A stretch of 62,365 bases of DNA, filler included, from Collodictyon triciliatum (taxonomy: Eukaryota), in NCBI GenBank assembly GCA_043381765.1. It is 17 parts of 17 records of this genome, joined end to end, with 100 filler letters (N's around TTAATTAATTAA, not from the genome) between each part and the next. Parts side by side here need not be neighbours in the genome. Positions count along the whole stretch, not along the records: positions 41,744 to 45,098 come from JBHJMP010007436.1; 16 more parts are not named here. One strand, given 5' to 3'. The notes below the pieces were generated by a model. The model worked only from the letters and a program-made list of their open reading frames with translations, was not told the DNA's origin and searched no databases. A program made the position numbers and the translations under genes. Positions 4,793 through 51,598 of this stretch are shown in pieces. How positions within the stretch are numbered: the first letter of the stretch is position 1; each line of letters begins with the position of its first letter.

Positions 4793-4823
<31 letters not shown>

Positions 4824-6430
4824 CAAAACAAAACAAAACAAAACAAAACAAAACAAAACAAAACAAAACAAAACAAAACAAAACAAAACAAAACAGTACA
4901 AAACAAACACACCTTATATTCTTTGGCCTGGTAACTGAGATAAGACGCGATAAATGGGCTCTTCAAATCTTCCAGCATGGATTGAATCAATTCATCTATA
5001 TAAAGTTTCATTCGGTTTATTATACCAACAATCAAATTGAAGAAAAATAAGGACAAATCAAATATTTCATTCAATTTTACCTGCTTCTTTCAAAGCCTTT
5101 CCAGAGTCCGTATTTTTGTAGCCACGGTTCGGAAGCAAAACAAGGTGCAATTTTTTGCTTGGTACTTTAGTAATCTCCTTTAATTGATTAACAAATCAGA
5201 TAGTAGGAAGGAAGCATGAAATGATACATCTTTATCCAAGAAATGTCAGTTAATTTATACGTCTACATCTTTGAATTTGATGAAGTTGTCTACGCTATGG
5301 CTTATGTAAGTAACATCTGTGGTGTATTTGTTTGTTTAAAACAATGTCAGCATCAAAAACAATCTTTTTTTTAAAAAAAAAAATCTAATTAAGATATTCA
5401 GAGAACAGGTGATCATGGATAATGATCCTAATTTTTTTTTTGAAAAGAGAAAAACAATAGCTTTCTCGTTCTTAAAACATACTGGTATCAGCGTATATTT
5501 GTGTTTCAGGGCTGGAGCTGCAAATCTCGACAAGGTGACGGGCGAATGGCATATTTTGATCAGCAGAAACCCATGAAACAGAAGATTCTTCAGTCATGGA
5601 CCTCTGGATTATTAATGACTGTCTTAAAAATACGGTAACTATTTAACCAAATAGACATACGCTGTTAACAATATACTCGAGTTAGATCTGTGGTGAGATA
5701 TTTTTATTCCATTGTTTTTATTAATTTTTTAATTAATATCGTGAATACAAGATTAGTGAGGTCATATTCCCTTACTTTAAGAAACTTTACAGTTCCGCCG
5801 TCTTTTTTCGCCGAAAATGCGTTAGCATGATATGAGAATTCCGTAGCACTCACCTAATTATAGTGTCCATATACCAGGTAGTTGAGAGACAAACCAACGT
5901 TAAATGCTTCTAAAGAAACGTTTATAATCAAATATTTATGTTCACGAATTTCTATGCTGTCTGAATCCAATAGATAGAGAAATAGAAAAATTAGATATAT
6001 ATTGTGATAATAATAATAATATCCTTAAAATCAAATAAAAGAAATAATATCATTATTGTTTCTATTCAAAAAAAGTGATACGGGAACGCACATCAGCATG
6101 TAAGAATAAAAAAAAGTCCGGTTTGTTATCGAGCTTTTGCATCGACAATCCCTACATAAGGTAATTTGTGTGGGAGAATTTTTGTAAGATATATGTCTTG
6201 TTCATAAGAGAAAAGGTATTTTGTGTTGAGACGTGGGAGACATAAAGTTATGACGATACCAGTCCTCTGGGATGATAGAGGAAAAGTATACAAATGACCA
6301 AAGAAACTGTGAAACCAACCGCAAAGCTATCGCACGAGTTTGAGAACCAGCAATTAAGTAAGCTCGTTATGTCTTCGGTTTTGACAGATTTTGTGACTTC
6401 CTTATTTGTCCCAGAGCCCAGCAAACTGAA
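4488..6430 (-). CDS. ATP6AP1: V-type ATPase accessory subunit Ac45/Voa1-like, multi-exon
   Basis: The last exon, FLDYFTPEVVVVLIFAIVLLLILYTGLSCLLALQTPPRF, matches the Ac45/Voa1 C-terminal TM signature (F.P...TM..LQTP.RF). Several upstream GT-AG exons are present; the 5' end is unresolved. Confidence 0.72.
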
Positions 6431-13568: not shown

Positions 13569-14159
13569 GTTGGAATTTTTTTTATTAGTTTACGTTTATA
13601 TTTCGTTTCTCAAAATAGCATTTGTGTGAGTCAAGTCCAGTATTAAACCCTTAATGCTTTTTCTCTCTACATGAAAAAAAAAAAAAAAAAAAAAACAAGA
13701 ACCCCACCCCTATTTTTTCCCCTTTTTTTCTATCTTCTAAAAATAACAATTACANNNNNNNNNNNNNNNNNNNNNNNNNNNNNNNNNNNNNNNNNNNNTT
13801 AATTAATTAANNNNNNNNNNNNNNNNNNNNNNNNNNNNNNNNNNNNNNNNNNNNAAGAAAAAAAAGAAAAAGAAAAAAAGAAAAAGAAAAAGAAAAAAAA
13901 GAAAAAGAAAAAAAGAAAAAGAAAAAAAGAAAAAAAAGAAAAAGAAAAAGAAAAAAAAGAAAAAGAAAAAAAAGAAAAAGAAAAAAAGAAGAAAAAGAAA
14001 AAGAAAAAGAAAAAAAGAAAAGAAAAAAAGAAAAGAAAAAAAGAAAAGAAAAAAAGAAAAAAAAGAAAAAGAAAAAGAAAAAAAAGAAAAAGAAAAAAAA
14101 GGCATTTTTTGAATATAGTCAATTAGAAACAAGCCATAAATTGTGTCTGATAATAAAGC

Positions 14160-14763
14160 CTACGCTCTGAAAGTGAAATCTGGAATGACCGACAGGAATG
14201 GGAGAAAAATTATGCAAAACCAATAAACCCAGGACTTGGTCAAATTTTCTTTGAAAAAAAAAAGAGGCTTATCAAGGAAATAATTCAAAACGCAAGAGTA
14301 CTAGAATTAAAACAATATGAGAAATGTTCCTTTTTTTTCTTCTAAAAAATTGCTTGACGTAAGACTTGAAATCAGTAATTTTTCAAGTATCACTCTTTGA
14401 TGGATACGTATAACACCGTACATATTCGATGGGTCAAGACCATCTAAATGACAATGAATAACTAGTATAATGTAAAACCCTCCGATTGACAAGAGAATAC
14501 CCAAGAACTGTAGAAGTGTCCAATGCCTACATTTATATAGACGTAAAGTGAGCAAAGAACAGTTCGAACCATGTATATTAAATCAAGAGAGAAACATACA
14601 AACGATACACTTACTTTGTCACAATAATAAGTCTGTACGTCACGGTCAATATGCATACAGTGGCAAGGACCGTTCCCATGACCCAGATACCGCCGTTCTG
14701 GATTATTTGAGTGAGTCAATACCTTGTAATACTCACCCAATGTAGTAATTTAAAAGAAAGGAT

Positions 14764-14813
<50 letters not shown>

Positions 14814-17120
14814 ACAACAAACAACAACAACAAGAACAAGAACAAGAACAAGAACAAGAACAAGAACAAGAACAAGAACAAGAACAAGAACAAGAACAAG
14901 AACAAGAACAAGAACAAGAACAAGAACAAGAACAAGAACAACAACAAAAAACATAAATACGAAACGACATTTCATATACAATAGGTAAGTGTACCTTCCC
15001 ATGTTGCAAATACATATCATCTCCGAGGGAAAAGAAAACCCCAAAGAAGTTTACTATCGAGTGCCAAAGAGCATACATCATCCATTGAATAAGTTTCTTA
15101 ACATAGCCCGACGAGGTTAAACACACATGAGCGAATAGGTTTGTAAAATTCAGGCATATAAACTTCAAAATGAAAATACTCGATACAAACGCGATAGGTA
15201 TGGAGAAGGCATATAAGACTTGCTGCAAAAAAGGGTTGATTAAGTGGCTACCTTCGGAGAGAAATCAGATCGTGACTGCACGGTCATATATAGTGCCGGA
15301 TTGCTCATTAAAATATCCTTATGCTTTATTTGGCAATACATAGGCATGAATAACACATCTTAGAAATAATCACATATAAATTGAGATGGTAAACCAGCAT
15401 ATAATTATTATCATCTTATGAAAAATACAATACCAAGTCCTGCTCTAGGATAGCCAACAGGAAAATGGGCAGAGATGTGTAAAAAATGTTGTAAAACATC
15501 ATTAAATACGGGTCGATGATAGTCTATTCGATTGTATTACAGTTAGAAATTTAATAAAGCAGTTTGATGGGTACCAATCTAGAGAAAGCTGACTTATAAT
15601 TAGCAATTAACATATACCCTCGGTCCTGCACAAAAGTTGAAAGGAAGAATAAAAAAAAAAAAAAGAAGCAATTAACATATACAAACCTGCCCTGTGAAAG
15701 CAGAACAAAAGGCAAAATAGATGATCGGCAAAATGAATGACATGCTTTTGTAGTATGAATAAAGTATGAGAACTGACATTCTCCTATAACACCACCGGCC
15801 ATGCACTAAAAGCAACTTTCCAAGAAATCTATATGAAAGAATTGAAATTGTCAGAGGTTTAGATGTTCTATCATTAAAATAGTGTCGCGTGAATAAGATT
15901 AGTTTGCTGTAATTCATAATGCGATAGCAGATGATTGACATCCAATAACCAAATACGACAGGAATTTTGAATTCTTCACTGCAAATATACTTTTTTCAAG
16001 CGATAAAGACTGGTGTAAAGAAAAAAATTATACGCGAATTGAGACAAGGCATAATCTGAGGCTCTCACTGCTTGCCTTCCTTCTCGACCGATGATTCCGA
16101 CGCCAACTTTAGCCTCCTGTATCATACTTCAGGGATATATGTTTAGACTTATTTCCCGCATCAAGGATTGCCTGATTTAGTGCAAATCAGATTCGGAATT
16201 TGGAGACTGTTTATATCCCCAGGTTTCCATGGATAATTATTATGATTATTAGGATATGCATACCTGACGTCATTGCCGCCGTCTCCAACAGACAAACAAA
16301 TCGGCTTCTTCTCTGAACTTTGTACGACTCTTACCACAAGAGCCTAATGCGTCGATTTTTTTAAGCACAAATAACAAAACAATATTCAGAATGATGAAGA
16401 AAATCTAAAATTATATTATTTATACTAGCGAAAAGAACCAAAAAAGACCGTACATTGGATATAAAAGAAAGAGATAAATAACCAGGATTGTCTACTAACA
16501 TAGCAAAAATAGTCTCAAATACGATTGTTATATTTTTATTTTTAAAAAAGAAACCTTCTGTAGTGGGGACATACGACAACACACCACACTCTGACATCTC
16601 ATCGCGACAGAAAGGAATAATTCCTGCAATAGGTTTGTTAACTAAATCCAGATATCTCATATAATAGCATAAATGAAAAGAATATTTAGAAGGGCATATA
16701 TTAACCGGGAAAAACTCGAGGGCGCATGTTATTGCTTCTCCGTCGATTACCAGCCCTATCGGCTGGGGATACACGACCATGCCATACCATATGATGTGAA
16801 ATAGTTTGACATTTGGTTAGTTCTCCTTTTGAAAAGAAAAGAAAACTTCTTGCATGGTTTTCTTTTCAAAAAAAAAAAACCACAACAGCAAAAATTAAGA
16901 CATACTACCTTCCGTTCCATTTCAATGTTTACATCAGATAATGATTTTTCCTCAGTAATTATGTTAGGACTTTTTCTAAACCCAGAGAAAAGTGGAGGTA
17001 AGCCGGCAGAATGTTCTGGCTGATTCACAACTGGTTCATAAGGGTCCTTATGAGGGAAAGTCTTTTTCCCAGCACCATAATTATACTTTTCTGCCGCGGA
17101 GCTCATGATTGGGTCTGTGC
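14160..17120 (-). CDS. P4-type ATPase (phospholipid flippase), C-terminal half
   Basis: Exons give [79 protein letters not shown] and NPALY. Confidence 0.95.
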
Positions 17121-17431
17121 TTCCTTCTGTTGACCAAAATGTCGATCAATATAATTGCCCGACCCCCTTTCCCCCGAAAACAAACAAACAAACAAACAAA
17201 CCAAAAAAAAAAAAAANNNNNNNNNNNNNNNNNNNNNNNNNNNNNNNNNNNNNNNNNNNNTTAATTAATTAANNNNNNNNNNNNNNNNNNNNNNNNNNNN
17301 NNNNNNNNNNNNNNNNTCTTTTTCTATCTCCCACACATCCCCACCTACTTTGGAACTACTTGCCTGATGGTTGAATGAAAGATTGTTGAGACGGGCTCAA
17401 CAGCTAAGACTTTTAGAATAAAAAAAATAAT

Positions 17432-19959: not shown

Positions 19960-20480
19960 TTCTAAAAAACACAGTTAGCAAAACAACAAGTTAGGGAAAA
20001 TAAAACAACTGACTGGCCTCAACTTACACAAGACGTATCAAAATATTGCGATGCGGAAGTACACTATGGACTATGTGGATAGCACGCATATACTCACGCA
20101 AAGCAAGACTCAACAACCAACTAGCCATTCCTGATAATAGACTGGATGACGTCATACAAATCTCTTTCCTCAATAGCTTTCTTCGCCATCTGCACGTTCT
20201 TTATCACAAACCTTGCGAGAAGATACATGTGGAAGGAAGCTGAGAAGGATATTAAACCTCGCTTTGTATCTCTCATGAGGCACAAGACCCAGGCTACAGG
20301 CCAAACCGCAGAATGCAATTGCTGATTGCTGACTACTCCTCCGCCACCCAGCCACCAAGTAGCGTCCATGCAAACGAGGACTAGCGAGCCAAATCCAACA
20401 TCTCCACCATCCTGCACAAATCAAAAGAAAATAGAAATAGAAATAGAAATAGAAATAGAAATAGAAATAGAAATAGAAAT
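19960..20480 (+). mobile_element. 3' end of non-LTR retrotransposon family B with a (GAAATA)n tail
   Basis: LWTMWIAR resembles the W.IW..RN motif at the C-terminus of L1/Tx1-type ORF2. Region 20330-20420 matches 52106-52200. Confidence 0.65.
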
Positions 20481-20581
20481 AGGAAAGAAAACTAGCGACT
20501 AAAGAGTGATTCGCTTCTTGCGTTATGATAAATAAACAAATGAGAATGCAGATGAATTCATATGGAGCAGTTTTCGGCCGC

Positions 20582-27593: not shown

Positions 27594-30084
27594 NNNNNNN
27601 NNNNNNNNNNNNNNNNNNNNNNNNNNNNNNNNNNNNNNNNNNNNNNNNNNNNNNNNNNNNNNNNNNNNNNNNNNNNNNNNNNNNNNNNNNNNNNNNNNNN
27701 NNNNNNNNNNNNNNNNNNNNNNNNNNNNNNNNNNNNNNNNNNNNNNNNNNNNNNNNNNNNNNNNNNNNNNNNNNNNNNNNNNNNNNNNNNNNNNNNNNNN
27801 NNNNNNNNNNNNNNNNNNNNNNNNNNNNNNNNNNNNNNNNNNNNNNNNNNNNNNNNNNNNNNNNNNNNNNNNNNNNNNNNNNNNNNNNNNNNNNNNNNNN
27901 NNNNNNNNNNNNNNNNNNNNNNNNNNNNNNNNNNNNNNNNNNNNNNNNNNNNNNNNNNNNNNNNNNNNNNNNNNNNNNNNNNNNNNNNNNNNNNNNNNNN
28001 NNNNNNNNNNNNNNNNNNNNNNNNNNNNNNNNNNNNNNNNNNNNNNNNNNNNNNNNNNNNNNNNNNNNNNNNNNNNNNNNNNNNNNNNNNNNNNNNNNNN
28101 NNNNNNNNNNNNNNNNNNNNNNNNNNNNNNNNNNNNNNCAGGAAATCGTCTTTGCCGATAGATAACATGAGCTTCGTGCAATATTACAAATGGCTTGGAG
28201 AAAAGTCGGATGGTCTATACAATGTAGTGCATGTTTTCTTGAACAATACAAAGTAAACACCGTTCGATAAAGGTATTTTTCTTTTAATAATCTAACAAAT
28301 AAATATAAAAGAAAAAAATACTCAAAAACGACATCCTATATTAATCACGAGACCATTAAAATAGAACTTAAAACAAAAATCCGAAGCAGATTTATACACA
28401 CCAGATGACGGCTTTCGAATCACTGCGTTTCACGTCTGGAAACAGAACTTTGATTTATTGTAGAATGATAATAAAAACTACATTCATTCAATAAACAAAC
28501 TAAAATTCACCGCAATTCAATAGATTTTTATCATGAGTCCATTATTTTTAATATTATAGTCACTCAATAAAAGCAAATGTACAATGACATATATTCCATT
28601 CCTTGATAAAATAAATGAATCGCTTTACTTCTGGGACAATATGCATGCATATACTTTTCAATAAAACATATTTTCATGCAATTTTTGTATCAGAGATACA
28701 AAAATTGTACGTATCACCACTCATAATAGTAAATCATTGTGCCGTGCATCAGAAAAATACGAATCAGAACACATGAAATGTAATTGTATTTTCTTTCTTT
28801 GATTCAAAAAATATAAAAATTACTTCAAAGAACATTATAATTATCATAAAAATATCATATAAAAGATGTATATATGATATTATTGATTAAAAATGAAGTA
28901 TTAAAATATTATTATTATTTATAAGCGTATAAAGATCCTGGGAAAAAACCTCATAAATCATAACAAACTCGTCTACTAAGTATCACCGCTTGGTAATATA
29001 TTCACCCATACATGGACATGCTGTGAGAAAATTCGAGGCTCTCCGAAAATTCTCTGTCACTTCTAATACTTGCAGTACATGGCCCCGCCGGCCGGCATTA
29101 GTAAATTGGGATGAACCTGGGATGAACCGTTCATCTCGCTCCAAATTTTTGACCGGCCGGCAGGGCTTTGTTCATCCCATGTAAAATTGTAGTATATTCG
29201 TGGAATAAATTGTGAAACTAATATTTCTATATTGATATTTTCTTTCCTATTAGAGATGAACCTGGTTTATCAATTATACAACTGCAGTGTCACCTTCTTG
29301 ACCGCAGCACCTTCTGTAAGGTCTTTGTTTATAATATGTATTATAAATACATATATATATTGTGTTTTGGTTCTTCCCTTTTTGTGGTTTTTTAATATTT
29401 AGTCAAGTTGATTCAATATAAATATTTTGTTCTATTCTTTTTTCCTTATTTCATACAAGAATTCTCTCCCTTTTTTGCTCTCTCTGTCTTCTGTTTTTTC
29501 TCTCTTGTCATTATTTTGTTTTCTCTGCTTTGTATTCTTTCTACACTATAAACAATTTGTATTTTCGTCCCCTACCAACACTTTATTTTACAGGTTATGT
29601 TCCATAATTTACACCCAAATGTGCTCTTTTTGTTATCTTTCGCTTCTATTGTTCGCTCCTATTGTTCGCTCTCTTGGTCGTGTTCATACTCTTACCATAT
29701 TTTCTTGTTGTTTGCATTGTCGTTTCTGAAATGCTTTATGCTATTCAATTTCAATATTTCTTATCCTTTCATTATTTTCATTCACAACTAACTTTTCATA
29801 CAAGCCCATCGATCGTTATCTTTCTTTTTTTTTCACAAAGAACTAGCTTCACTATATGCTTCTTTCAATTTGTAACTTTTCTCAATATACATGAGGGGAT
29901 ACGAATGAGCTAATAATTCATCTATTGTAACAAGATGTCTTTCATCTTTATCCGAAACGCACAACTGCCTTCAATATGGGCCCAACAAGTACATCGCACT
30001 GTAGGGAATATATAAAACTCATTTAATTGTATAGATGAAGAGACTATACACTTTACTCTTTGATCATTGAATTTTACTCTATTC

Positions 30085-30610
30085 CATGTGTTGCATGCTC
30101 CATGCTCTTTGCTGTATGGTTTATTCTATGTATTATATGAATTATGTGCTGAATGGTAAATGATGTATGCTGTAAGCCATATGTTCTGTGTTATATACTG
30201 TATAATATATGATACATGATTTTTGCTCCATACTCCATGCTTCATACTCCATGATCTATGCTCTATGCTCTATGCTACATATTCTGTGCTCCGTTCTCCA
30301 TGATGCATGCTCCGTGCTTTATGCTCCATGCTCCATGCTCCATGCTCCGTGTTTTATGCTCCATGCTCCATGCTGCATGCTCCGTGCTTTATGCTCCATG
30401 CTCCATGCTGCATGCTTTATGCTCCATGCTCCATGCTCCATGCTCTGTGCTCCATGCTCCATGCTCCGTGCTTTATGCTTCATGCTCCATGCTCCATGAT
30501 TTATGCTCCATGTTCCATGCTCCATGCTCCATGCTCCATGCTCCATGCTCCGTGATTTATGCTCTATGCTGCATGCTCCATGCTTTATGCTCCATGCTCT
30601 GTACTCTATG
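30085..30610. repeat. (CCATGCT)n heptamer satellite
   Basis: Direct inspection; it explains the MLHAPCS ORFs. Confidence 0.92.
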
Positions 30611-31371
30611 ATGAATTTTGTATACTTCTTTCTCTGTGCTTTATACTGATAGGATATGATAAACGCTACATTCTCTATACTCTGGAATCTGTTCTTTGGG
30701 TTTCCTTGTCGAAATTTCTGCTTCTGTTCTTTTGAGTTTTGTATATAAATTATATCATATTTGTCTCTTTTTTTTCCAAGTCTGTCATATACATACTCTC
30801 TCATATCATCTCTGCTCTACTATTATGTTCCAATTTATATCTACTCCACATTTCCACACTCTTTTCCATATCTATGTATGGATGTTGTTTTTTTCCAGTG
30901 CATTCTTTATTTGAATTTTTTATCTTTTTGGATTTATTCTCTTCACCACTAAATCTTTTAAATCGTTTAATTACTTATATTTATTGTTCTTTAATGATTC
31001 ATCAAATGGGATCCTATTTTGATTGTTATTGGGTTATATGCATGCATGGAGGGTAACTTGATGTGTGCGGCGATTATGCTAATAACAACATAAAAGGGGG
31101 TTGCAATTCTATAAATTAGAAAGAGAAAGTGAAGTTTGCAATTGAATCCTGAGGTGTCCGCTCAGCCGAAGATTCGCGTAGTGAGCAAGATTCGGAATTG
31201 TGGAGTTCATTTTAAAAATCCGAAAAATCATACGGAGGGGGGGTCCCCTTTAGGGGCCCGGAGTTGTTTTTNNNNNNNNNNNNNNNNNNNNNNNNNNNNN
31301 NNNNNNNNNNNNNNNTTAATTAATTAANNNNNNNNNNNNNNNNNNNNNNNNNNNNNNNNNNNNNNNNNNNN

Positions 31372-37653: not shown

Positions 37654-38762
37654 GTAATCATTTGTATCAATTGTAAATAATCAAATAATGTATTCATATG
37701 AGCATACTTACAGGGGACTCGCGATGCTGTAGTCCTAGAAATCGAAAGCAGTTTTCATGATTTATTAATAAAATGTTATTATTACTATCATTATCAGTAT
37801 CATTATCAGTATAATTATCAGTATAATTATCAGTATAATTATCAGTATAATTATCAGTATAATTATCAGTATAATTATCAGTATCATTATCAGTATCATT
37901 ATCAGTATCATTATCAGTATCATTATCAGTATTATCATTATTATCATTAGTATCATTATCAGTATCATTATCAGTATTATCAGTATTATCAGTATTATCA
38001 GTATTATCAGTATTATCATTATTATCATTATTATCATTATTATCATTATTATCATTATTATCATTATTATCATTATTATCATTATCATCATTATCATCAT
38101 TATCATCATTATCATCATCATCATCATCATAATTTTATTACTAATAGCGAAATTTTCGGAGTAAATTAATTCATGAATCCTCGTGTNNNNNNNNNNNNNN
38201 NNNNNNNNNNNNNNNNNNNNNNNNNNNNNNTTAATTAATTAANNNNNNNNNNNNNNNNNNNNNNNNNNNNNNNNNNNNNNNNNNNNTTTTCTTTTCTTTT
38301 TCTTTTCTTTTCTTTTCTTTTTCTTTTCTTTTTCTTTTCTTTTTCTTTTCTTTTTTCTTTTCTTTATTTCTTTATTTCTTTATTTCTTTATTTTTATTTC
38401 TTTTTCTTTTCTTTCTCTTTTCATTTTTTCATTTTTTCATTTTTTTCATTTTCTCTTTTCATTTTCTATTTCTTTTTCTTTTTCTTTTTCTTTTTCTTTT
38501 TCTTTTTTTCTTTTTTTCATTTTTTCATTTTTTCATTTTTTTCATTTTCTCTTTTCATTTTCTATTTCTTTTTCTTTTTCTTTTTCTTTTTCTTTTTCTT
38601 TTTTTCTTTTTTTCTTTTTTTCTTTTTTTCTTTTTTTCTTTTTTTCTTTTTTTCTTTTTCTTTTTTTTCTTTTTAATATTCGGCTGCGCGATGCACAAAC
38701 CTTAGCAAGCAACAAAGGCAGCGCATAAAAAGAAAAGCGAGCACCCACTGACTGGCTCCTAG

Positions 38763-40610: not shown

Positions 40611-42096
40611 GGAGTTTCTGCTGACACCATCATCCGCTAGTTACTTGGCGAAAAACATAATCGAGCTATCGTCCACCTATGAAGCTGCCAGCCTCGCATA
40701 CATCCGATCTGCCGAGAAATAAAATCACCCTGATAATCAATAAAGGACATTGCGCCAAACTTCATCGCTCGTGGGCGATAGCCAGATTCTTCATTCTTTT
40801 GCCGAAAAACTATGCCTAAAGAATGACGTGATGACAGCAAAGATGCGAGGCATCCAGGCTCTGATACCTGCGACTTCTTTTTGTATTTTTTTTGTATTTT
40901 TTTTTGTATTTTTAAGGAATTTATTGTATTTTCTGTCGACCTATGATTTACGCCCGACAGAGTAGGAAATTTATTTGAGCAAAACTGAGTGGTGACGCCA
41001 ACTGCACTGATACAATCAGAGTAATTCGTTAACATTTATGTTATTAGTGCATTATATTATTGATAAAATTCACAAATCAGCCACACAGCATGAAAATTGT
41101 TGAAATAGTTATATTTTCCGCATTTGAAATGGTATCGATACCACTCAACCGCAAAATATTTTCGCCTGCAACAACCAACCGCGCTTTGATCACCGCGCAT
41201 CCAGCGTGTTCATCGGTCATCTGCCTGGCAGACTCAAAGCCGTGTGCACCGTGTCTCGGCGAAGGTATCCGGTGAGGCTTAACCGATCGACCGACCCGCC
41301 AATTTTGTTCTTTTTGGAGAGAATATTGTTGTGTGTTTCGATTCTCTTGGCTTTTGACTTTTGGCTTTTATGTCCACTGCCTTTCTTTTGATTATATACA
41401 TATACTTCGCTTCATTTTATATCGGCTTGTGTTTTTTTCTTTTGGCGCCCTTCTTCTCCAAACCTGACGTTCTGGCTGTTTGACTCTTTTCTTGACCTCA
41501 CCCGGGCCTCTTATCCGGACTGCAAAGTCTGGGCGACATACGGATAGAAAACACATGAAACCACCTGAGAACAAAAAACAAAAAAACAAAAAACAAAAAA
41601 CAAAAAACAAAAAACAAAAAACAAAAAACAAAAAAACAAAAAANNNNNNNNNNNNNNNNNNNNNNNNNNNNNNNNNNNNNNNNNNNNTTAATTAATTAAN
41701 NNNNNNNNNNNNNNNNNNNNNNNNNNNNNNNNNNNNNNNNNNNTTTATCTCTTTTTGAAAAATAAAGAAACATAAAGAAAAGAAAAGAAAAGAAAAGAAA
41801 AGAAAAGAAAAGAAAAGAAAAGAAAAGAAAAGAAAAGAAAAGAAAAGAAAAGAAAAGAAAAGAAAAGAAAAGGACAAGAAAGAAGATGGATGAGAAATGA
41901 AAATATATGAAATTTTAATGTCAATAATGGCCTTTGATATGCAGAGACCATATCAACTGAATACGAAATGAAGAATTAGGTCCGTATGGGTCACATGATT
42001 TCTTTGTCGAAACTCGTCATAAGCTTTCCCCGCCAATATATTTATAAAGTGAAGTACAAATATTTTTAATCAACCTTTTAATAACAAAAAACTTAC

Positions 42097-44184
42097 ATTG
42101 TTTCGCTGCTAAATGCATAATCCGCAGACTGTTGATTGGCAAAATCTTCATAAACATCTTCTTTTATTGCAGTATCTTCGTAAGTACTCGAATGCTTAAA
42201 GCTGCCAAAATATCCCTCAAAGTCCTCGTCATATCGATTAGAACAAATGTCATAAGTGCCTGGTCGAAGGTGGCCATACTTTTGAAGAAATCCCTCCTTC
42301 GAAAGCATATTTTTCTTCATTTTTTCCTAGATTTATATGCAATTTGATGCCAGATTTAGAGCTTTAATAACATCAAGGCGCCTGTTTTAATTAAAAAATT
42401 TTTTATTATTACTGATGTATATCCTCACCACATCTTTTCCAAGAGTCTTACTAACAGTTTCCAAAGAGCACATAAAAGTATCGACCTCACTTTGTGATAT
42501 TACGTCATCTGTAACTAAAGATTGCAGAATTTGACGGGATATGAATGCTGCTCGAGCCAATCCAGCAAATGGCTTAGTGCCGTATCGTTTACAATCCTCT
42601 AGAAGGAAGTAGATCTTTTGCACAATATGCATATCCGAATCTAGAATCGCGGTATGTCTTTTCTGGAGCTTTTCAATCTTTGCCAACTCTTTCTGAACAA
42701 TACCTAAAAATTAATAAACTTTATGAATTTTTCTGCCAATTAATTTTAAACGCGACATTTTAGAAGATTTTTTGGTTTTATTTTAATATTGAAAAAAATG
42801 CAATTTGGGGTAGAACACTGAACTGTCGCATCAAATCATAAATTGATAAGTATGCTATTTAACAAACCATTATCTGCATTAATAAGATTTTCTGTCAGAG
42901 TGAGCAAGGATGCTTGGATTTCTTCAAGCTCGCTCATTTTGAAGCCATATCTTAACAATTCTTGCATTTCCTGGCGGATATTCGGATAGTAGCATGTAAA
43001 TGCGATGTTAAATTCCACTTTGTCATGGTTGGATGGACTCAGTCTTAATTTCTCTAGGTAATAACTTTTAAAATAACTCGAATCAGCACCTAACACAAAT
43101 TTATTTAATCAACAAATATGTAATTTTAGCAACGATATACAAAGAACCACAATCATGCGATAAAAATTTTTTAATGTGAAATTAATCTTGTGATTAGCCA
43201 TGTGAAAGTTTTGTTTTTGTGCTCGCGTTCAAAATTCATATTTGCTTACTTGACGAGTTTGTCAGCAAGTTGATTAGGAATGTCCTTCGGAATAAAAGAG
43301 TTGAAGCTAACACGTGAGTCGATGTATGGCCTCCCCAGGAAGGAGATCATCAGAGGAAATGCACCCATGTTTCGATATCCATAAGCATCTCGCTGAGATG
43401 CCCATACGGAGTCTGTGATCAACTCTCTGTACAAAGACAGAGCCAAAGGGCGTGGCTTAATCCCGATGATTTCAGCCGGGTTCCAATCGGGCATGACACC
43501 GTAGACAGTTCCTTTTCCAAGCAGGTCAATGTGGCCTTGGTCCATCATATTCTTTAACTTCTCACAAGTCTTCCTATGATAGTATAGAAGCTTGTCGCTG
43601 GCCACTGGCTTCAGGATTCGCGGTACCGACGCAATAGGGCGAACTTGGAGAAGATACAAGATGTTATAATCGTCTTCAGAGCAAGTGGAATCGCGGGGCA
43701 TATTTGGCTCACAAAAAGAAGGCATCGGGTTGTTCCACAGATGGAGCAGTTCGTGCGAGGTTAGAATGTCGATAGTACGAGCCGGAAGAAAAGGTGTGCC
43801 TGACTCTGGATTTGTAACAAAGACCTGCTTCCTAGGAGGTTTGGAGAGGGCAAACTCGATGTCGAGGAATGGGCAGTTGAAAAGAACACAAAGCCTTTCA
43901 GCCAACGCGTAGATACGCACATGCATGGAATCGCAAGGAGGAGTCGGTGCATTGCTCAGTCGGGTGATTGAGACAACATCGGCCACAGACGTGTCACCCG
44001 AGAGCCCGCCTGTCACAGCAGAGGTATGTCCGGCTTTGTCATAGCTCAGGTGGTAGTATGCAGATAGGCTTTCTGGGTCGGCCGTCAACAGGACACCACA
44101 CGCAACTGGCTTCTCAAGGCACTGCTGTACAATGACGTGCTGTGTGTCGGATAGCACATCACACACACAAAGCGAAGCAGAAAA

Positions 44185-44251
<67 letters not shown>

Positions 44252-44926
44252 ATAGGAAATATTTTGATAATACACATCTTGACTACTTGGATAATTAAAC
44301 AGATAGATAACTCAACGTTCGTAATAATTCAAATACCACACGAAACATCAATAATTTATCAAGAAATAGAAATAGAAATAGAAATAGAAATAGAAATAGA
44401 AATAGAAATAGAAATAGAAATAGAAATAGAAATAGAAATAGAAATAGAAATAGAAATAGAAAAAGAGACACCCCAAAAAATACGAGTGAAAAGTATCGGA
44501 CAAATAACAAAGCTCACAAAGAACAAATACTAAAAGAAAATTCGGTAGACCGAGGCTCGCCTCACACAGAACAGCTCCTACCTGATCGGCCTCAATCGGC
44601 AACCCGTACGAGTCAAAGACTCTCTCGATGGCCGCAGCCACACTTGCCGTGTCCTTTGCCGGGATATGAGACACAGTCAGAAACGCTCCGGCCATGGACG
44701 AAAGGTTTGTGTCTTCTCCGCTGTTGCTGCTTCGGACAAGCACACTGTCACCCCAGAGCGGAAGTTCCTCGCCAAGAGCGCTCATCAAAGCAGCGCGTTG
44801 GTCGGGCCTTCGCCACAGTCCGTGTGTCACAACAAAGAAGCAGGGAATCTCTTCGAGTGCTTCTCGGCGCAGATGCGGCGCTGCCCGCCAGAGATTCTCG
44901 GCTTTTGTGCCAAAGTCAAGCGCCAT
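42097..44926 (-). CDS. L-glutamine kinase-like (Campylobacter Cj1418 family; PPDK/PEP-synthase-like ATP-grasp), spliced, 3' truncated
   Basis: Five GT-AG exons (44582-44926, 43250-44139, 42868-43064, 42429-42703, 42097-42326) join in frame: [100 protein letters not shown]. Confidence 0.85.
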
Positions 44927-44981
44927 GGGTAGCTGTTGGTTGGCCTGTTTTTTTTGTTTTGTTTTGTTTTGTTTTGTTTTG

Positions 44982-45018
<37 letters not shown>

Positions 45019-45067
45019 TGTTTTGTTTTTGGTTTGTTTTTGTTTTTGTTTTTGTTTTTGTTTTTGT

Positions 45068-45098
<31 letters not shown>

Positions 45099-45198
45099 NN
45101 NNNNNNNNNNNNNNNNNNNNNNNNNNNNNNNNNNNNNNNNNNTTAATTAATTAANNNNNNNNNNNNNNNNNNNNNNNNNNNNNNNNNNNNNNNNNNNN

Positions 45199-46110
45199 TT
45201 TTTCCGAGGGTCTCTTCTTAGGGAAGACAAGGGTGACTCTCCAGGGGAGCTTGCTTTCTGTTCCATTTTGGGGCTGTTCATCGAAATCATGGTTCTTAGC
45301 TAGTGCCTGGGCATAGGCCCCCAAATCCTCCTCTGTTGGTTCTTTTTGGGTTGGGGGTGTCCTTTCAATATTTTTTGTCAGGGCCTCAGCATATGTGGCT
45401 CTATGTGTTGGACTCTCTCTGGGCTCAAGGCTCCTGGTTTCTTCTAAGGAGTGGTACCTTTCTGATTGCATCGAGGTCTCTACTTCCTTTTCATTCGGTT
45501 GTGGTTTCTCAGTGGGCATGCCATAGTTTGTTTTCTTCTTGACTTGTTTGTTAGAGTTCTCGCTACTACGTTCCGTGGCGGTTTTGGCAGGAGAGGATTT
45601 TGTGTTGAGGATTGCATGTCCATGTCCGGGCATCGCCGTTTCTTCGCTAGCAACTGATTGTCTGGTTTCCACCTGGGCTGGCTTTTGTTTGTTAGCCTGT
45701 TTTCGTTTGCCTGTGGATACCTCGGGGTTAGTAGGCGTGTCTTTAGTTGTAATCGGGGCTGGGGCTGGGCTCTTATATCCTTTCGGAAGAGTACTTGCTC
45801 TAGAGGGGTACCCTCCGACCATCTTGCGCTCCTCGTTGGTTGGGCTCGTCCGCGTGTATCAGGGGAATGAGGATTTACAAGATAGCTTTGGGCGAGCTGG
45901 TCTTATTAGTTTCTTGGGTGGGCACAATACTATTGATAGAAATTTATGCTCTGCAATCGAGATGGCAAGACGAATCCCTGTCCATTGCTGGCTAAGGACA
46001 CGATACTTTCCGATATATTTTTTTTTTGGTTGAAAATCCTGGTGTCCGCGCTCTTGAGAATTTTCTCACTTTAGGAGCAGTCAGGTTCGCAGAGCAGGTG
46101 AGCAGTGTAT
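45199..46110 (-). mobile_element. 5' UTR and gag-like ORF1 of a non-LTR retrotransposon (partial)
   Basis: An intronless low-complexity ORF of over 200 aa with TYAEAL/AYAQAL motifs, open to the contig end. Confidence 0.5.
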
Positions 46111-47359
46111 CTCTCTCTTTGACTAGGTAGTGGTAACCACTTTATCGGATTTAAATAACTCTTGGACTGAACCCAGTTAACATCGATTAGATGAACGATT
46201 AATTAGTATTCAAAAATATTGTTACAGTGAAATTTTAAAACAGGATATTGATAAGTGTGCAACCTTGAAGACATATTTTAGCTGGAATGAGAGTGTTTGA
46301 GCGAACGAGAAGAGCTGAAAGGGCCTGTCGGTGATGAATACTGTCGTGTTTTCTTTTCTCGGGAAGCAACTCCGAGTCTGATGGCTGAGTCTTTCATAAT
46401 TATAAAAGTCACTTCCTTATCGTTGCACTTTCGGGCTTTCATTACATCTCGTAGTTTATTGTACATATTCGAGCAGTTTGCGAAGGAAAGGATTTTTCAT
46501 TATTTTCGTATAGGTAAATGAAGCAGTCTTTTTGTCTTTAAAGAATTTGCTCTATATCGCTTACATTAATTGGGGTATGTCAGTCACTTATTATTGATTG
46601 AGAGTCTGTATCCCGACGCAAGCTCGCCCCTTCACATGATGTTCACGCCATTAGAGTTCTGGTCTCATGCGATTTCATTATGAATTCAATTGAATCTGTG
46701 GAGGTGTATTAATAAGCAATAAAACAATATCCATAAACATTCAACACTACGAAAGATAAGCAAATGAGAAAAGGAAAGAACTCAGTTTGGACATCCCATA
46801 CCATTTTTATAATAGGTTATAATATAGATTGAAAATATTTACAATTTGTGGTATGTCGAATACTGCGTCATAAATTTTCCGAATTTTTGCAGCAGGAATA
46901 CACGTCGTGCATCATTGGGTGATATCGCACCTGGAGCATTCGAGAATGTTCTGCCTTCCCAATCACCACACGAGCCACACACCGCACACGAGCGACACAC
47001 AGCCCAATCCGTCCACTATATATTGAGATGGCCGCATCTTCATTCGGACGGATGATTCGCCGGCCTTAGTGGGATATTTAACCTTCGTCCCGTCGAAATC
47101 GCTGCTGCCTTGCGCTCTGCCTTTCTCGCCACCTTATCACATCACTCATTCGCAATGCGCGTTCTATTCTCTGTGTGCACAACCGCACTGCTCTCACCCC
47201 AGCAACCCCAGTCTGTGTTACTTGTCAAGTGCAGTCGCAAAACAAATAAACACCGCTGTGCACTAACACAACCCAGTCCACCCGCCCACACAGCCCCCAG
47301 AACCCGTCCACACAACCCCCAGAACCCGCCCAAGCCGCCCCCGCCCCACTTCTGTCGGC

Positions 47360-48552
47360 ATGGCCGACGAGGCCGCGCTTTTAGAAGAAGTCCGAAAGAT
47401 CGCCGGGGAATCCGACATCGCCTCTTTAAAAAGCTCCAAGAGTCTGGATCTCCGATCCAAGAATCTGACTTCCGTACTGCGTGGTGTCTTCTTGTTGTCT
47501 GGTGTGAAAATATTGGGCCTTGATGGCAATCAGTTGTCATCGCTGCCTCCACAAATATCGTGCTTGACTGGTCTCACGGCTCTTGGTGTTAGTGACAATC
47601 AGTTGTCGTCGCTGCCTCCAGAAATATCTTGTTTGATTGGTCTCGAATGGATTAATGTTGGTGGCAACAAGTTGTTATCACTACCTGCTCAAATATTGTG
47701 TTTGACTGGTCTGAAAAGATTGGAACTTTTGGGAAATCATTTGCCATCGCTGCCTCCACAAATATCGTGCTTGACTGGTCTCATAAAACTTAGTGTTGAT
47801 GGCAACCAGTTGTCATTGCTGCCTCCACAAATATCGTGTTTGACTGGTCTCACACGGCTTAGTGTCAGTGAAAATCAGTTGTCATCGTTGCCTCCACAAA
47901 TATCGTGTTTGACTGGTATCACATATCTTAGTGTTAGTGACAACCCGGTATGTTTTTTTTATTCATTTACTACTATTTTTATTTATGTTAAAAAGAGAAA
48001 GTCACTGACAACAATACATGCAGATGGAGGAGCTTCCACCACAATTTACATCGCTCACAAATATGAGGACGCTCTACATCAAATACGGTGGAAGAATGAA
48101 CATAAAGAGAGCGCCGCGTGGCATCACAGCCCTTCCAGTGTGGAACAACACATCAAACGAGGACTACAAACACATCCGAAAGCTGCAGCTCTACGACCCC
48201 GTAAACACATAAAGATAAAAAAAATAACAAAGAAAAGTATCCTAAACACACAAAAAAAACAGGAAGACGAAATTCTAAAGCCGGGATGGACACCAAGCGA
48301 GGCATATATCCAGCTCCACTCGCTGAATTTCACGGGAAGAAACATCTCCGCGCTTCCTGCCAACATCTCCCTCCTGGTGAATCTGAGCTCCATCGACATC
48401 AGCCAGAACAAGGTATGTGAAACAAAATCACCGTAATAAGCATAAATCTTAATAATCGATAAACAACAAGTCCAAATGATTTGGCACTAATTAAATTTCT
48501 GCATGATGACCACATGGCATCACTCGATATATCCACCAACCTGATTAAACTC
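47360..48552 (+). CDS. Intracellular leucine-rich repeat protein, 3' truncated
   Basis: About seven 23-aa repeats L.VSDNQLSSLPPQISCLTGL; GT-AG introns at ~47948-48023 and ~48201-48262. Confidence 0.9.
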
Positions 48553-49065: not shown

Positions 49066-51598
49066 TCAATACTTGCAAATCTTTCCTTCTGCGAGCGAAA
49101 CATAGAAATGCGACTTGCCAAATACTGCATCCATGGGTTCATTCGTGGAAATAATCTTCAAAAGCTCTCCATCTTCGGTATAGAAAGCGATGCGATTATT
49201 ATGCGAATCTATCACCACAAACCCATTATCCACACTTGCAGAGAGCGAAACCAATCCGCCTACTTGCTGAATAGGAATGTCTCTAATCCAGGACCCGTCA
49301 TTTGAATAGCACCGAACTACATCCCCCCTGTAAGCCAAGGCTAGTATCTCGTTGGCCTGGTTCACCGCTATCGCTTGCACCCCATCAAAGTCTATTGCAA
49401 AGGACGCCTCCCATTTTTTTGTATCCCTCCATTTCTGAATGCATGGACCGGACGGGTTGCTCACAAAGAGGTTTCCATACGAGTCGAAAGCGACACCGTG
49501 TGGTGTTCCCATGTACAACGGCCGCTCTATCTTTCCAGGGATAACTAGAAGAAACTCAAAGTTTTCCTTAAAGATTTGGACTCTGTGGTTTCCTGTATCT
49601 GAAACAGCTATGATTCCTTGGTCCGATATCGATATGTTGCGAGGGTAATAAAATTCTCCTGGATTTGCTCCTTTACGCCCGAATGTCTGAACGGGGATAA
49701 GTGTTGGGTTATATACCCGGACGCAATGATGGAATGGATCGATTATATGGACGTACCCATCCCTGGGGTCGATAGACACTCCATATGCACCCACATTTCC
49801 GACAGATTCTTTTTCATCGACATCGATTCTGTCGTGCGGGGGTGTGGATATTACCACGGTTTCCTCGGGTTCTGAGATTTCTTGTATATCTCTCTCTATC
49901 ACATTCGTGATAAAGACAAGGACCCACTCTTTGCACAGGTGCTTTTCGATGGGTCTATTAAGCGAGAGCTCTAATGTATCGGGCATTTGCATTTGCACAT
50001 AGTATCGACGCCTCTCAGCAGTACAAGGAGGATTCTTTTGATTTAAAATCTCGTCCAAGTTGTGGAGTGTGTATGGAATCAAAAGGCTACATCCTGTTTG
50101 TTGATAAAAGTCTACCGCCTCCATGTACGCCTCCACTGAGCCGTTCAATCGCATCTCTAAACCGGTGACAGAATCGTAGTTTTCCTGTACTCCGAAAATC
50201 AAGTCCCGTGATTTTTCTTTGACCTGAGAATAGTTTGGAATGAAATAAATCAATAAATACCACATCCATGTCACATATAACGATCAGGAGACAGGTTTAG
50301 TATATTTCCGAAATAGGAGATTTCCAAGTCTCTTAAAGTATTTGATTCGTTTTCTTTTTCCATTTTAGTGACCAGGAAATACAAGCTAAATTGACTTTTC
50401 ATACTTATATCTGTGGATATAGCAAACATGGCAAGAGAATGCATGCAATTATGCCATACCGCTTCCTTGGCCTCTATTTCTAGTACATCTAATCGTTGGC
50501 GTAACTCTTGAAAATATGACTTTATATTTGCTGCTTGGCTATCAAAAGTATCTGTCACCTATATCAACATACATTTGTATAAGCGCCTGCAGAGAAAAAT
50601 GGGAGAAATAAAAAAAAACTATTTTTCGATCATTACAAATCGTAAAAAAAATTATAGAATTCATAATAGATCGAGTAATTGAAGGGCTGATCACCGATGA
50701 AATGTATTTCTTGAGAGGCAACTTTAAGGTTTCCAATTCAAGAATACGGTCATTGACCCTCTTTAGGAGCTCATCTCCTTTCTTGAGATAGGCCTGAATG
50801 GATTCATCCACAACTCGCAGAGGATGTACGGTGGTTGATTTTATATCTTCGTCGCGGCATACTGAACATTTGAATGGATTCAAATGACAACATTCACATG
50901 CCCATTTAATTGGCTGTCGGTGATGTTTTGGACATCCTTTTAGAACCTCGTTTTCTTCGAGGTCTTGAATAACAAGGGCATTACTAGTTGCAGATTTTTT
51001 TTTCGTGTTCAAAGCTATTCAGCAGTCTTCTGGGAGAGTGAAGGAAACCTCATTTAAATAAGAATGATATGGTATGGAATGAGAATACACTTACACTACT
51101 GTATGTAATTTATTTAGGTGGAAGTGATTATGCTCCTCTAAACACTTTGGGCATAATGGCCCACAACCTGTTTGGCAGTAATACGGGGCCATAGATTTGC
51201 ATCCAATACATGTGTACATCCTTTTTTTTGAATCGAGGAGCTCGCGTAGCTTCCCAAGGATATCAAACTTTTCTAAGCTCAGCATCTCCTCCTGCGATAG
51301 TGTAGACATATCTCCACAGATGAAGCAGGTGACAGCTCTGTCTAATTCAGATGCAACAGACCAGTCATCCTTAATGCAGCTATAGCAAAATGCATGTTGG
51401 CATTTGAGGAAACGTGGGTCGTCGATGGTAGAGGAGCATCTTTTGCAGGTCAGAATTCTTTCCAGATTGCTTCATTTCCATTTAATTGAATGGGTTGTTT
51501 CAGTTAAAGAACGTAAGAGCAGTGTATTTTTATGAATATAAGTCATGTATCCATAAAAAGGTATTGACTAACCTATGACAACCTCGCTTGCGGATCAT
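49066..51598 (-). CDS. TRIM-NHL-like protein (RING, B-box 1, B-box 2, coiled coil, NHL repeats)
   Basis: RING: CKRC..PRFLKCQHAFCYSC..CFIC. B-box: CIGC..YCQTGCGPLCPKCLEEH..H. B-box: CPKH..CECC..CSVC..H. NHL: FGRKGANPGEFYYPRNI..VSDTGNHRVQIF. One junction needs an A-run correction near 51000. Confidence 0.85.

Follow-up and report, generated by a model that had tools for sequence, protein, structure and literature searches.

L-glutamine kinase (EC 2.7.3.13), the first enzyme of the pathway for phosphoramidate decoration of glycans, has been described in Campylobacter jejuni as Cj1418, and in the available text of the papers that deal with its reaction, EC number and gene cluster the activity is ascribed to this protein only (PMC6429109, PMC11800397). 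According to the part available of a 2019 review, O-methyl phosphoramidate has been identified only in Campylobacter (PMC6429109); the accessible portion of a 2024/2025 paper reports candidate clusters for this modification in archaeal Borg elements, not in viruses. Here, a related gene is described in the protist Collodictyon triciliatum. The DNA analyzed, referred to as the window, is a stretch of 62,365 bases from assembly GCA_043381765.1, and the gene lies on its minus strand, with the ATG at 44926 and the last exon base at 42097. It is very probably a eukaryotic, intron-bearing member of the Cj1418 family, represented by the profile NF004508. Its presence is likely explained by the transfer of a bacterial gene of this family before the lineage of C. 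triciliatum separated from that of Diphylleia, followed by its domestication as a nuclear gene.

An earlier note, made on the basis of the sequence alone, had proposed this relationship and stated that no description of the pathway in eukaryotes was known. In the open literature searched (subscription journals and supplements being outside the scope of the search) the occurrence of a Cj1418/glutamine kinase homolog in eukaryotes was likewise found undescribed among the papers listed, judged by their titles and the opening of their abstracts, and no functional or gene-transfer description of the ortholog from Diphylleia rotans was encountered. The papers listed on methyl phosphoramidate in a eukaryotic context dealt with Campylobacter, other bacteria or Borg elements.

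Membership in the Cj1418 family

NF004508 is an NCBIfam profile (PRK05849.1) of 789 positions with a curated cut-off of 501 bits. It was the only strong NCBIfam match of every exon of the gene, and the exons align to it in collinear order over profile positions 8-552 of 789 (Table 1). In the same scan, the models of phosphoenolpyruvate (PEP) synthase gave at best E=0.07 (NF004881 on exon 1) and the rifampin phosphotransferase model NF041857 showed no significant match on any exon, while Pfam returned nothing on the kinase exons except a sub-threshold PPDK_N match on exon 1. The gene therefore did not group with ordinary pyruvate phosphate dikinase or PEP synthase, the outcome which the earlier note had named as contrary to its proposal, the best match to these enzymes being marginal.

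The correspondence between NF004508 and the Cj1418 family is indicated by a gene cluster of Campylobacter volucris and by the score of a C. jejuni protein. In C. volucris (locus L003) an O-methyl phosphoramidate transferase (NF058596) and two methyltransferases come before a NF004508 protein of 777 amino acids (1105 bits), which is followed by a NF045546 protein (gamma-glutamyl-CDP-amidate hydrolase; CDP, cytidine diphosphate), a sugar-phosphate-type nucleotidyltransferase and an adenylylsulfate-kinase-like protein, with KpsS located two genes further. This arrangement matches the order Cj1418-1417-1416-1415 given for C. jejuni in the available text of PMC11800397. Additionally, a partial C. 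jejuni protein, which represents 989 database sequences, scored 561 bits on NF004508 and shares 34% identity with exon 2. On this sequence evidence, the profile is that of the Cj1418 family.

The earlier note had relied on six sequence motifs of Cj1418. All six are present in the spliced protein and in a Helicobacter protein, five of the six occur in the C. volucris protein and four in the partial C. jejuni protein, which ends before the other two. The resemblance to Campylobacterota proteins was thus confirmed at the level of motifs, and the family identity was sustained by the profile matches on all exons as well as by the phylogenetic trees described below. Of 108 alignment columns conserved in at least 90% of 54 bacterial rows, 97 are kept in the kinase protein, including 48 of 49 in exon 2 and all 13 in exon 3; among the 11 columns missed, six are also changed in Diphylleia and four fall in the misaligned truncated tail. 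This degree of conservation argues against a decaying pseudogene.

Exon-intron structure of the gene

The five exons (Table 1) splice to 1937 nucleotides (nt), equivalent to 645 codons plus 2 nt, without any stop, in agreement with the earlier note, which had placed five exons with GT-AG introns and a product of ca. 640 residues between the same coordinates. The guanine-plus-cytosine (GC) content is 0.24-0.28 in the four introns vs 0.37-0.58 in the exons; translation through each of the introns in frame would meet 3-6 stops, and in three of the four the length is not a multiple of 3. The GT-AG borders restore both the reading frame and the collinearity with a homolog known from a transcript (the Diphylleia protein P0001, see below), and at junctions 2-4 the spliced protein aligns without gaps within ±12 residues with this protein and with the bacterial protein P0028. 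In intron 2, the in-frame acceptor is ttttaaaag/T at 43065/43064, as use of the upstream ttag breaks the frame. The donor of exon 5 is the consensus GTAAGT; left unspliced, the frame stops immediately (ATG TAA), after 646 codons. Relative to the bacterial proteins, the kinase exons carry no N-terminal extension, so that a cytosolic location is the simplest reading for the predicted protein.

Intron 1 contains two microsatellites, (AAAT)18 at 44182-44254 and (AGAAAT)17.5 at 44362-44466. The hexamer unit is also found, as (AAATAG)n, at 20429-20490 on another contig, and the AAAAC and AAAGA repeat types of the contig ends occur in the window at 4795-4907 and 1-97 as well, in line with the earlier note, which had considered the repeats of intron 1 to be of host type. 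A/T-rich microsatellites form the ends of most contigs in the window.

Along the coding sequence, exon GC drops from 0.58 to 0.37 and third-position GC decreases steadily, being 0.59 over the initial 100 codons and 0.31 over the final 45. This drop could be due to a 5'-to-3' composition gradient of the host or to incomplete amelioration of a GC-rich donor gene.

The window is not a single locus but a series of about 18 pieces of ca. 3.35 kb in descending order of length, joined through 16 artificial 44N-TTAATTAATTAA-44N linkers (32 runs of 44 N paired around TTAATTAATTAA), and it includes one run of 545 N at 27594-28138. Since the pieces were joined artificially, the neighboring sequence provides no context for the kinase gene, and any gene-neighborhood reading would be wrong. 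The contig that carries the gene has microsatellites at both ends, which accounts for the break of a short-read assembly at these points. Downstream of exon 5, the 353 nt that remain to the contig end contain stops in all three frames and include (AAAGA)21 at 41774-41881, a repeat of ca. 110 nt that begins 216 nt past 42097.

Table 1. Features of the kinase gene, its contig and the host gene used for comparison (window coordinates; a slash marks an exon border; P0001, Diphylleia rotans ortholog).
Feature	Positions	Strand	Remarks
Contig with kinase gene	41744-45098		3.36 kb; bounded by N/TTAATTAATTAA linkers (N runs 41644-41743 and 45099-45198)
(TTTTTG)n microsatellite	44948-45098		contig end; begins 22 nt upstream of ATG
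Exon 1	44582-44926	-	345 nt, 115 codons; start codon and N-terminal part of ATP-grasp domain; donor CAG/GTAGGA; NF004508 positions 8-111, E 1.3e-13, 49.9 bits; PPDK_N E 5.5e-5; P0001 residues 1-113
Intron 1	44140-44581	-	442 nt; GT..AG; GC 0.26; two microsatellites
Exon 2	43250-44139	-	890 nt; remainder of ATP-grasp domain; 13-letter motif, W..QRD.YGYR, R.SFNSFIP; NF004508 match ending at 343, E 4.6e-70, 236.6 bits; 56% identity, P0001 residues 108-397
Insert of ~55 residues	43672-43845	-	approximate coding region; alignment columns ~224-281
Intron 2	43065-43249	-	185 nt; GTAAGC..TAAAAG; GC 0.28; phase 2 (splits codon)
Exon 3	42868-43064	-	197 nt; start of central helical domain, HDK.EF motif; NF004508 positions 343-412, E 4.2e-18, 64.7 bits; P0001 residues 398-466
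Intron 3	42704-42867	-	164 nt; GTTTGT..TTTTAG; GC 0.24; phase 1
Exon 4	42429-42703	-	275 nt; 17-letter family motif; NF004508 positions 410-509, E 5.3e-27, 94.2 bits
Intron 4	42327-42428	-	102 nt; GTGAGG..ATCTAG; GC 0.27; phase 0
Exon 5	42097-42326	-	230 nt; 17-letter family motif and variable linker; ends AT/GTAAGT; NF004508 positions 503-552, E 5.7e-15, 54.4 bits
Start of presumed fifth intron to (AAAGA)n at contig end	41744-42096	-	no further coding match
P4-type phospholipid flippase, C-terminal ~320 residues	contig 13855-17216	-	nine pieces of 75-258 nt

The Diphylleia ortholog and other relatives

With exon 2 as query, a word-indexed search of 5.8 billion proteins (8000 candidates scored, 6000 at E<=1e-3) gave P0001 as top match (E 4e-98, 56% identity, full coverage), the next being at 3.6e-57; the matches that follow are bacterial-type proteins of 760-810 amino acids, several of them named glutamine kinase by JGI. 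An exhaustive HMMER search of 1.84 billion representatives placed the same protein first (1.3e-98 vs 1.5e-47 for the next; 1507 matches at E<=1e-3). P0001 corresponds to the EukProt entry EP00002_Diphylleia_rotans_P018718, a complete transcript open reading frame (ORF) of 852 amino acids, whose NF004508 score of 852 bits exceeds the cut-off of the profile and which carries a phosphohistidine domain with the histidine motif GG.NSHMAIRAAELG. It is 55-60% identical to the kinase protein over ca. 570-630 aligned residues. When P0001 was compared with the whole window by tblastn, the exon order was reproduced up to residue 597 and nothing was found for the C-terminal ca. 250 residues. In both proteins an insert of ca. 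55 residues separates the LDIEFA block from the LYLLQVRPI block; six bacterial rows lack it.

Diphylleia rotans was the only further eukaryote to appear among the matches in the two protein libraries, and the family is therefore not widespread among the eukaryotes covered, a distribution which, in the earlier note, would have spoken against acquisition. A near-length search for fragmentary eukaryotic relatives yielded 324 proteins at E<=1e-20; among the matches listed there were bacterial-type fragments only and none from EukProt. Three proteins with high local identity (P0305, P0312 and P0389) were considered as members of the eukaryotic clade and discarded, as they do not have the insert. 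Scans of JGI metagenome contigs with exon 2 patterns and with clade-specific ones, e.g., MHIVQKI, confirmed none of 92 and none of 596 stretches, respectively.

Contigs from sequencing reads

Contigs assembled from reads were compared with positions 42097-44150 of the window, the highest share of sampled words in any run being 17%. A freshwater-metagenome DNA contig (X3, 42309-42547) spans intron 4 and both flanks with 0 differences, and DNA contigs from another freshwater metagenome (X1) cover the two boundaries of intron 2 as well as a portion of exon 2 at 100% identity. The intron-bearing sequence thus exists independently of the assembly, and its presence in two freshwater metagenomes indicates that the organism lives in fresh water. 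In a third data set (X2) one contig covers exon 5 from 42321 to 42097 and extends 690 letters past 42097, and another covers 42465-42704 in exon 4, where the match stops at the predicted acceptor and 7 letters are left unplaced. These contigs cover exon sequence only, neither intron 3 nor intron 4, which is the pattern expected of spliced transcripts; splicing is therefore likely, the assignment of X2 to RNA being itself a guess. Two short pieces, one of 32 nt from a metatranscriptome (X8) and one of 34 nt (record 1 of X1), had unlike flanks and were treated as derived from other organisms. Stretches that no contig covers were given no weight as evidence.

These contigs bear directly on whether the gene could be a bacterial contaminant or the product of a chimeric assembly, as might be suspected for a single gene on a contig of just 3.36 kb that belongs to an overwhelmingly bacterial family. 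The ORF is collinear except for its interruption by four AT-rich GT-AG introns that contain in-frame stops, the intron-bearing sequence recurs in independent metagenome DNA contigs, the closest relative is a eukaryotic transcript with the common insert, and the microsatellite types match those of other contigs. On the strength of the introns, the host-type composition, the microsatellites and the identical metagenome sequences, contamination can be ruled out for practical purposes, its probability being negligible. The argument from introns advanced in the earlier note thus holds and is extended by the other three lines of evidence.

Probable bacterial origin and residence in the host genome

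Three unrooted maximum-likelihood trees were inferred, two quick ones with 56 and 35 rows and a careful one with 26 rows; the rows, partly hand-picked and partly random, were drawn from 269 proteins, with the representative sample restricted to lengths of 740-830 amino acids. The kinase protein and its Diphylleia ortholog form a clade with a support of 100 in the Shimodaira-Hasegawa-like approximate likelihood ratio test (SH-aLRT) in the trees with 56 and 35 rows, and of 100/100 in the tree with 26 rows. The sister group comprises P0018, P0009, P0026 and P0028 (support 96, 96 and 99/96), and in the three trees the eukaryotic pair is nested among bacterial NF004508 lineages, with the Campylobacter/Helicobacter clade included in the same tree. 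The sole organism name in the sister group is that of one cluster member of P0028, a Polyangiaceae bacterium, and it is only a pointer to a donor of this type.

The direction from bacterium to eukaryote is indicated by the distribution of the family, which covers hundreds of bacterial lineages vs two eukaryotes. The bacterial acquisition put forward in the earlier note agrees with the nesting observed in the three trees, and a bacterial origin of the gene together with residence in the host genome is supported by these sequence data. In the scenario proposed, a bacterial gene of the Cj1418/NF004508 family (PEP-utilizing-type three-domain kinases) would have entered an ancestor shared with Diphylleia and, after the transfer, would have gained no fewer than four spliceosomal introns (probably five or more), a composition like that of the host and the lineage-specific insert of ca. 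55 residues. The transfer probably predates the split of the C. triciliatum lineage from Diphylleia.

Other contigs of the window were used to evaluate the kinase gene against host genes. Among 117 ORFs scanned, eukaryotic domains were detected, including the C-terminus of a P4-ATPase, an MSL3 chromodomain/Tudor-knot, protein kinase, Kelch, RING, NHL and leucine-rich repeats (LRR). The best match of the P4-ATPase exon at 15675-15995 was a Diphylleia rotans transcript (73% vs 58% for the next). Compared with the Diphylleia protein P0400, the P4-ATPase pieces showed 48-85% identity over eight collinear ones and 34% over one overlapping piece, and 51-67% when compared with two other eukaryotes. 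The gaps between the pieces (79-294 nt, GC 0.25-0.36, several with gt..ag borders) resemble the introns of the kinase gene. Diphylleia is thus the nearest sampled relative of the organism, which is not that strain itself. The divergence of the kinase from its Diphylleia ortholog is similar to that of the native gene, which fits vertical descent from one acquisition in a common ancestor. Intron density is ca. 1 per 480 nt of coding sequence in the kinase gene vs ca. 1 per 110 nt in the native ATPase, a lower value that would be expected of a later arrival.

Domain architecture, completeness and substrate

An AlphaFold2 model of the Diphylleia ortholog, built with 41 homologs, reached a predicted local distance difference test score (pLDDT) of 88.4 and a predicted template modeling score (pTM) of 0.87, the insert being the main low-confidence stretch (pLDDT 52-62). 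Listeria rifampin phosphotransferase, with six full-length structures, gave its best PDB matches (E 2.5e-18 to 1.6e-13, 15% identity), 5hv1 being on top (E 2.5e-18); PEP synthase and ATP-grasp ligases came next. A sequence search of the PDB with the family matched the histidine domain alone and returned no solved structure for the N-terminal two-thirds. The model predicts an architecture made up of an ATP-grasp domain, a helical substrate domain and a swivelling histidine domain.

By analogy with Cj1418 and with the rifampin phosphotransferase fold, ATP would be bound by the N-terminal ATP-grasp domain (exons 1-2). The C-terminal swivelling histidine domain, present in the Diphylleia ortholog and presumably encoded by exons beyond the contig, would take up the phosphate and pass it to a small substrate held in the central helical domain (exons 3-5). 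The work of Raushel on Cj1418 reportedly points to a phosphohistidine intermediate, with AMP and Pi as products. As regards the protist protein, the analogy with Cj1418 tips the balance slightly towards glutamine kinase activity.

A number of observations weigh against the overall reading of a transferred and domesticated kinase of this family. The scores of the exons, obtained in separate scans, add up to 499.8 bits over 70% of the profile, just below its 501-bit cut-off. Enzymes of this class require the phosphohistidine domain (PF00391) for catalysis, and the comparison with P0001 found it neither on the contig nor anywhere else in the window. No spliced junction was listed among the read contigs on 42097-44150, and the RNA origin of X2 is a guess. 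Four differences separate the window from the read contigs (two synonymous and two non-synonymous), too few to speak on selection. Residues that are at least 90% conserved in bacteria are changed (W->F, L->K inside CKRYGT.PFAG, L->H), and the stem of the eukaryotic clade is long (0.52-0.66 changes per column).

The gene in the window is a partial family member. This would also be the case for a truncated or decaying copy that had lost the histidine domain, ended at the TAA after exon 5 and was non-functional or regulatory, a reading which accommodates the in-frame TAA met at once if the exon 5 donor is unused and the lack of histidine-domain coding sequence in the window. The 645 codons, however, run without stop or frameshift and are highly conserved, the exon 5 donor matches the consensus, and the Diphylleia ortholog is complete. 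Furthermore, the 690 letters by which the X2 contig extends past 42097 are approximately the length needed for the missing ca. 210 residues plus a short untranslated region, and they would hardly be genomic, since the (AAAGA)n repeat would begin after 216 nt. A truncated copy is accordingly judged improbable. The absence of the histidine domain can be attributed to the contig ending 353 nt past the GTAAGT donor, and the gene is probably full-length, with its histidine domain encoded beyond the contig.

The long stem and the changed conserved residues suggest that substrate specificity may have shifted. The protist protein could have the same family and fold and act on another amide, an amine or a hydroxyl, or could play a role outside a glycan pathway. 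Besides the stem, such a shift would be compatible with the clade-specific insert in the ATP-grasp domain, with six changes shared with Diphylleia at columns at least 90% conserved, several of them in the central domain, and with the fact that rifampin phosphotransferase, the nearest solved fold, shows that the architecture serves very different substrates. Against it, the great majority of the conserved columns is retained, with every one of the 13 in exon 3 and the greater part of the CKRYGT and GHLRPGTY blocks, and the clade is placed well inside NF004508, between bacterial groups that are fused or adjacent to enzymes of the Cj1415-1417 type. A changed substrate is thus considered unlikely, if worth keeping in mind, and the transfer and domestication of a Cj1418-type kinase is preferred.

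Fusion proteins, giant viruses and the phosphoramidate pathway

Within the family, fusions join the NF004508 kinase to Cj1417-like and Cj1416-like domains (P0160 and L009) and to a Cj1415-like domain (P0134). Such Rosetta-stone fusions tie the NF004508 family as a whole to the CDP-amidate pathway. In P0134 (975 amino acids) an adenylylsulfate-kinase-like (Cj1415-like) domain is fused to a full NF004508 kinase (948 bits), which further connects the initial step of CDP-amidate synthesis with the final one.

The L009 protein is encoded on a contig of 64,930 base pairs assigned in IMG/VR to a giant-virus metagenome-assembled genome (MAG). The ORF at L009:3255-7073 (+) specifies 1273 amino acids in three fused parts, a Peptidase_C26/GATase domain (NF045546-like, 124 bits), an NTP_transferase domain and a full NF004508 kinase (781 bits), uniting Cj1417-, Cj1416- and Cj1418-like steps in a single chain. 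Its neighbors are ORFs resembling Nucleotid_trans, DUF3431, LicD and TOD1/MUCI70 glycosyltransferases, together with an asparagine-synthase-like ORF. The kinase region of P0160 (1266 amino acids, 807 bits on NF004508) is 79% identical to that of L009, and the long-branched clade of these two also includes P0191. The searches of the open literature turned up nothing on phosphoramidate genes of giant viruses, the papers listed dealing with Borg elements and with Legionella.

The occurrence of a family member on a giant-virus MAG contig raises the question of whether the protist gene is an endogenous viral element delivered by such a virus and was not taken up from a bacterium directly. The L009 protein, a triple fusion, falls with P0160 and P0191 in a separate long-branched clade, whereas the protist proteins are unfused; it shares 33% identity with exon 2 in the best segment and is not sister to the protist clade. 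Based on this placement in the tree, a viral origin was rejected as highly improbable, and direct acquisition from a bacterium is retained.

Together with a cytidylyltransferase, an amidotransferase-type hydrolase and a 3'-kinase, the product of the protist kinase would feed the formation of the CDP-amidate donor for phosphoramidate decoration of glycans. That this protist has the complete pathway is doubtful on present evidence. It can be proposed, tentatively and with odds clearly below even, that diphylleid-type protists run the whole route from glutamine kinase to CDP-amidate and place P-N groups on glycans or on a metabolite, and that a giant-virus lineage separately carries the first three steps in fused form. 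If this were true, phosphoramidate decoration of glycans would extend to eukaryotes and their viruses. The conserved copy shared with Diphylleia shows that eukaryotes have retained the first enzyme of the pathway from a time that precedes the divergence of these two members of a deep, little-studied lineage. The gene represents a concrete lead to P-N chemistry in protists and a clean example of the capture of a bacterial gene followed by intron gain. Its significance is tempered by the fact that transfers of single enzymes from bacteria to protists are common, that only two-thirds of the gene are on the contig and that expression is merely suggested.

Other features of the window

The remaining contigs contain several elements of diverse nature. 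An intron-free ORF at 47267-48433 (+) encodes a leucine-rich-repeat protein of 388 amino acids, with the DNA periodic at 69/138/207 nt, and another intron-free ORF at 49069-50283 (-), on a different contig, encodes 405 amino acids with an NHL repeat. A (TGCTCCA)x54 array at 30224-30599 overlaps an open frame at 30322-30816 (-) with no Pfam family, and a 9/12-nt repeat array (TTATCATTA/ATTATCAGTATC) occupies 37776-38127. At the start of the contig next to that of the kinase gene, and unrelated to it, an open frame of 220 amino acids rich in Pro, Thr, Lys and Glu (45199-45858, -) matched no Pfam family. The Rfam scan of the window gave no match at gathering thresholds.

Comparison with known systems

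The protist protein belongs to the same profile family as Cj1418, the L-glutamine kinase of C. jejuni, and shares with it the motifs of the ATP-grasp and central domains; its identity with the C. volucris protein is 37% over 559 aligned residues. Unlike Cj1418, the protist gene is split by spliceosomal-type introns, encodes ca. 55 extra residues as an insert, is not located in a capsule gene cluster and has its histidine domain off the contig. Its nearest bacterial relatives are found in the Polyangiaceae-containing group and not in Campylobacterota.

PEP synthase and pyruvate phosphate dikinase share with this family the PPDK_N ATP-binding domain and the PEP-utilizers mobile domain, but their central domain is unrelated and their profile scores on the protist gene are marginal. 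The rifampin phosphotransferase RPH-Lm (5hv1, 5fbs, 5fbt) is the closest structure to the modeled ortholog across all three domains, and its general mechanism, with ATP-grasp, swivelling histidine and substrate domains, is presumably the same; it differs in having its own NCBIfam model (NF041857) and in its substrate, which is an antibiotic hydroxyl and not an amide nitrogen. The proteins L009 and P0160 are members of the same NF004508 family tied to eukaryote-infecting or eukaryotic genomes; in contrast to the protist gene, they are fused to Cj1417-/Cj1416-like domains, form a separate clade and show no introns.

The closest system is that of Diphylleia rotans, whose protein has in common with the kinase of C. 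triciliatum the insert and six clade-specific substitutions. It is known as a transcript-derived ORF and, unlike the gene on the contig, is complete with its histidine domain. The Diphylleia ortholog exhibits the three-domain layout of Cj1418, including the histidine motif.

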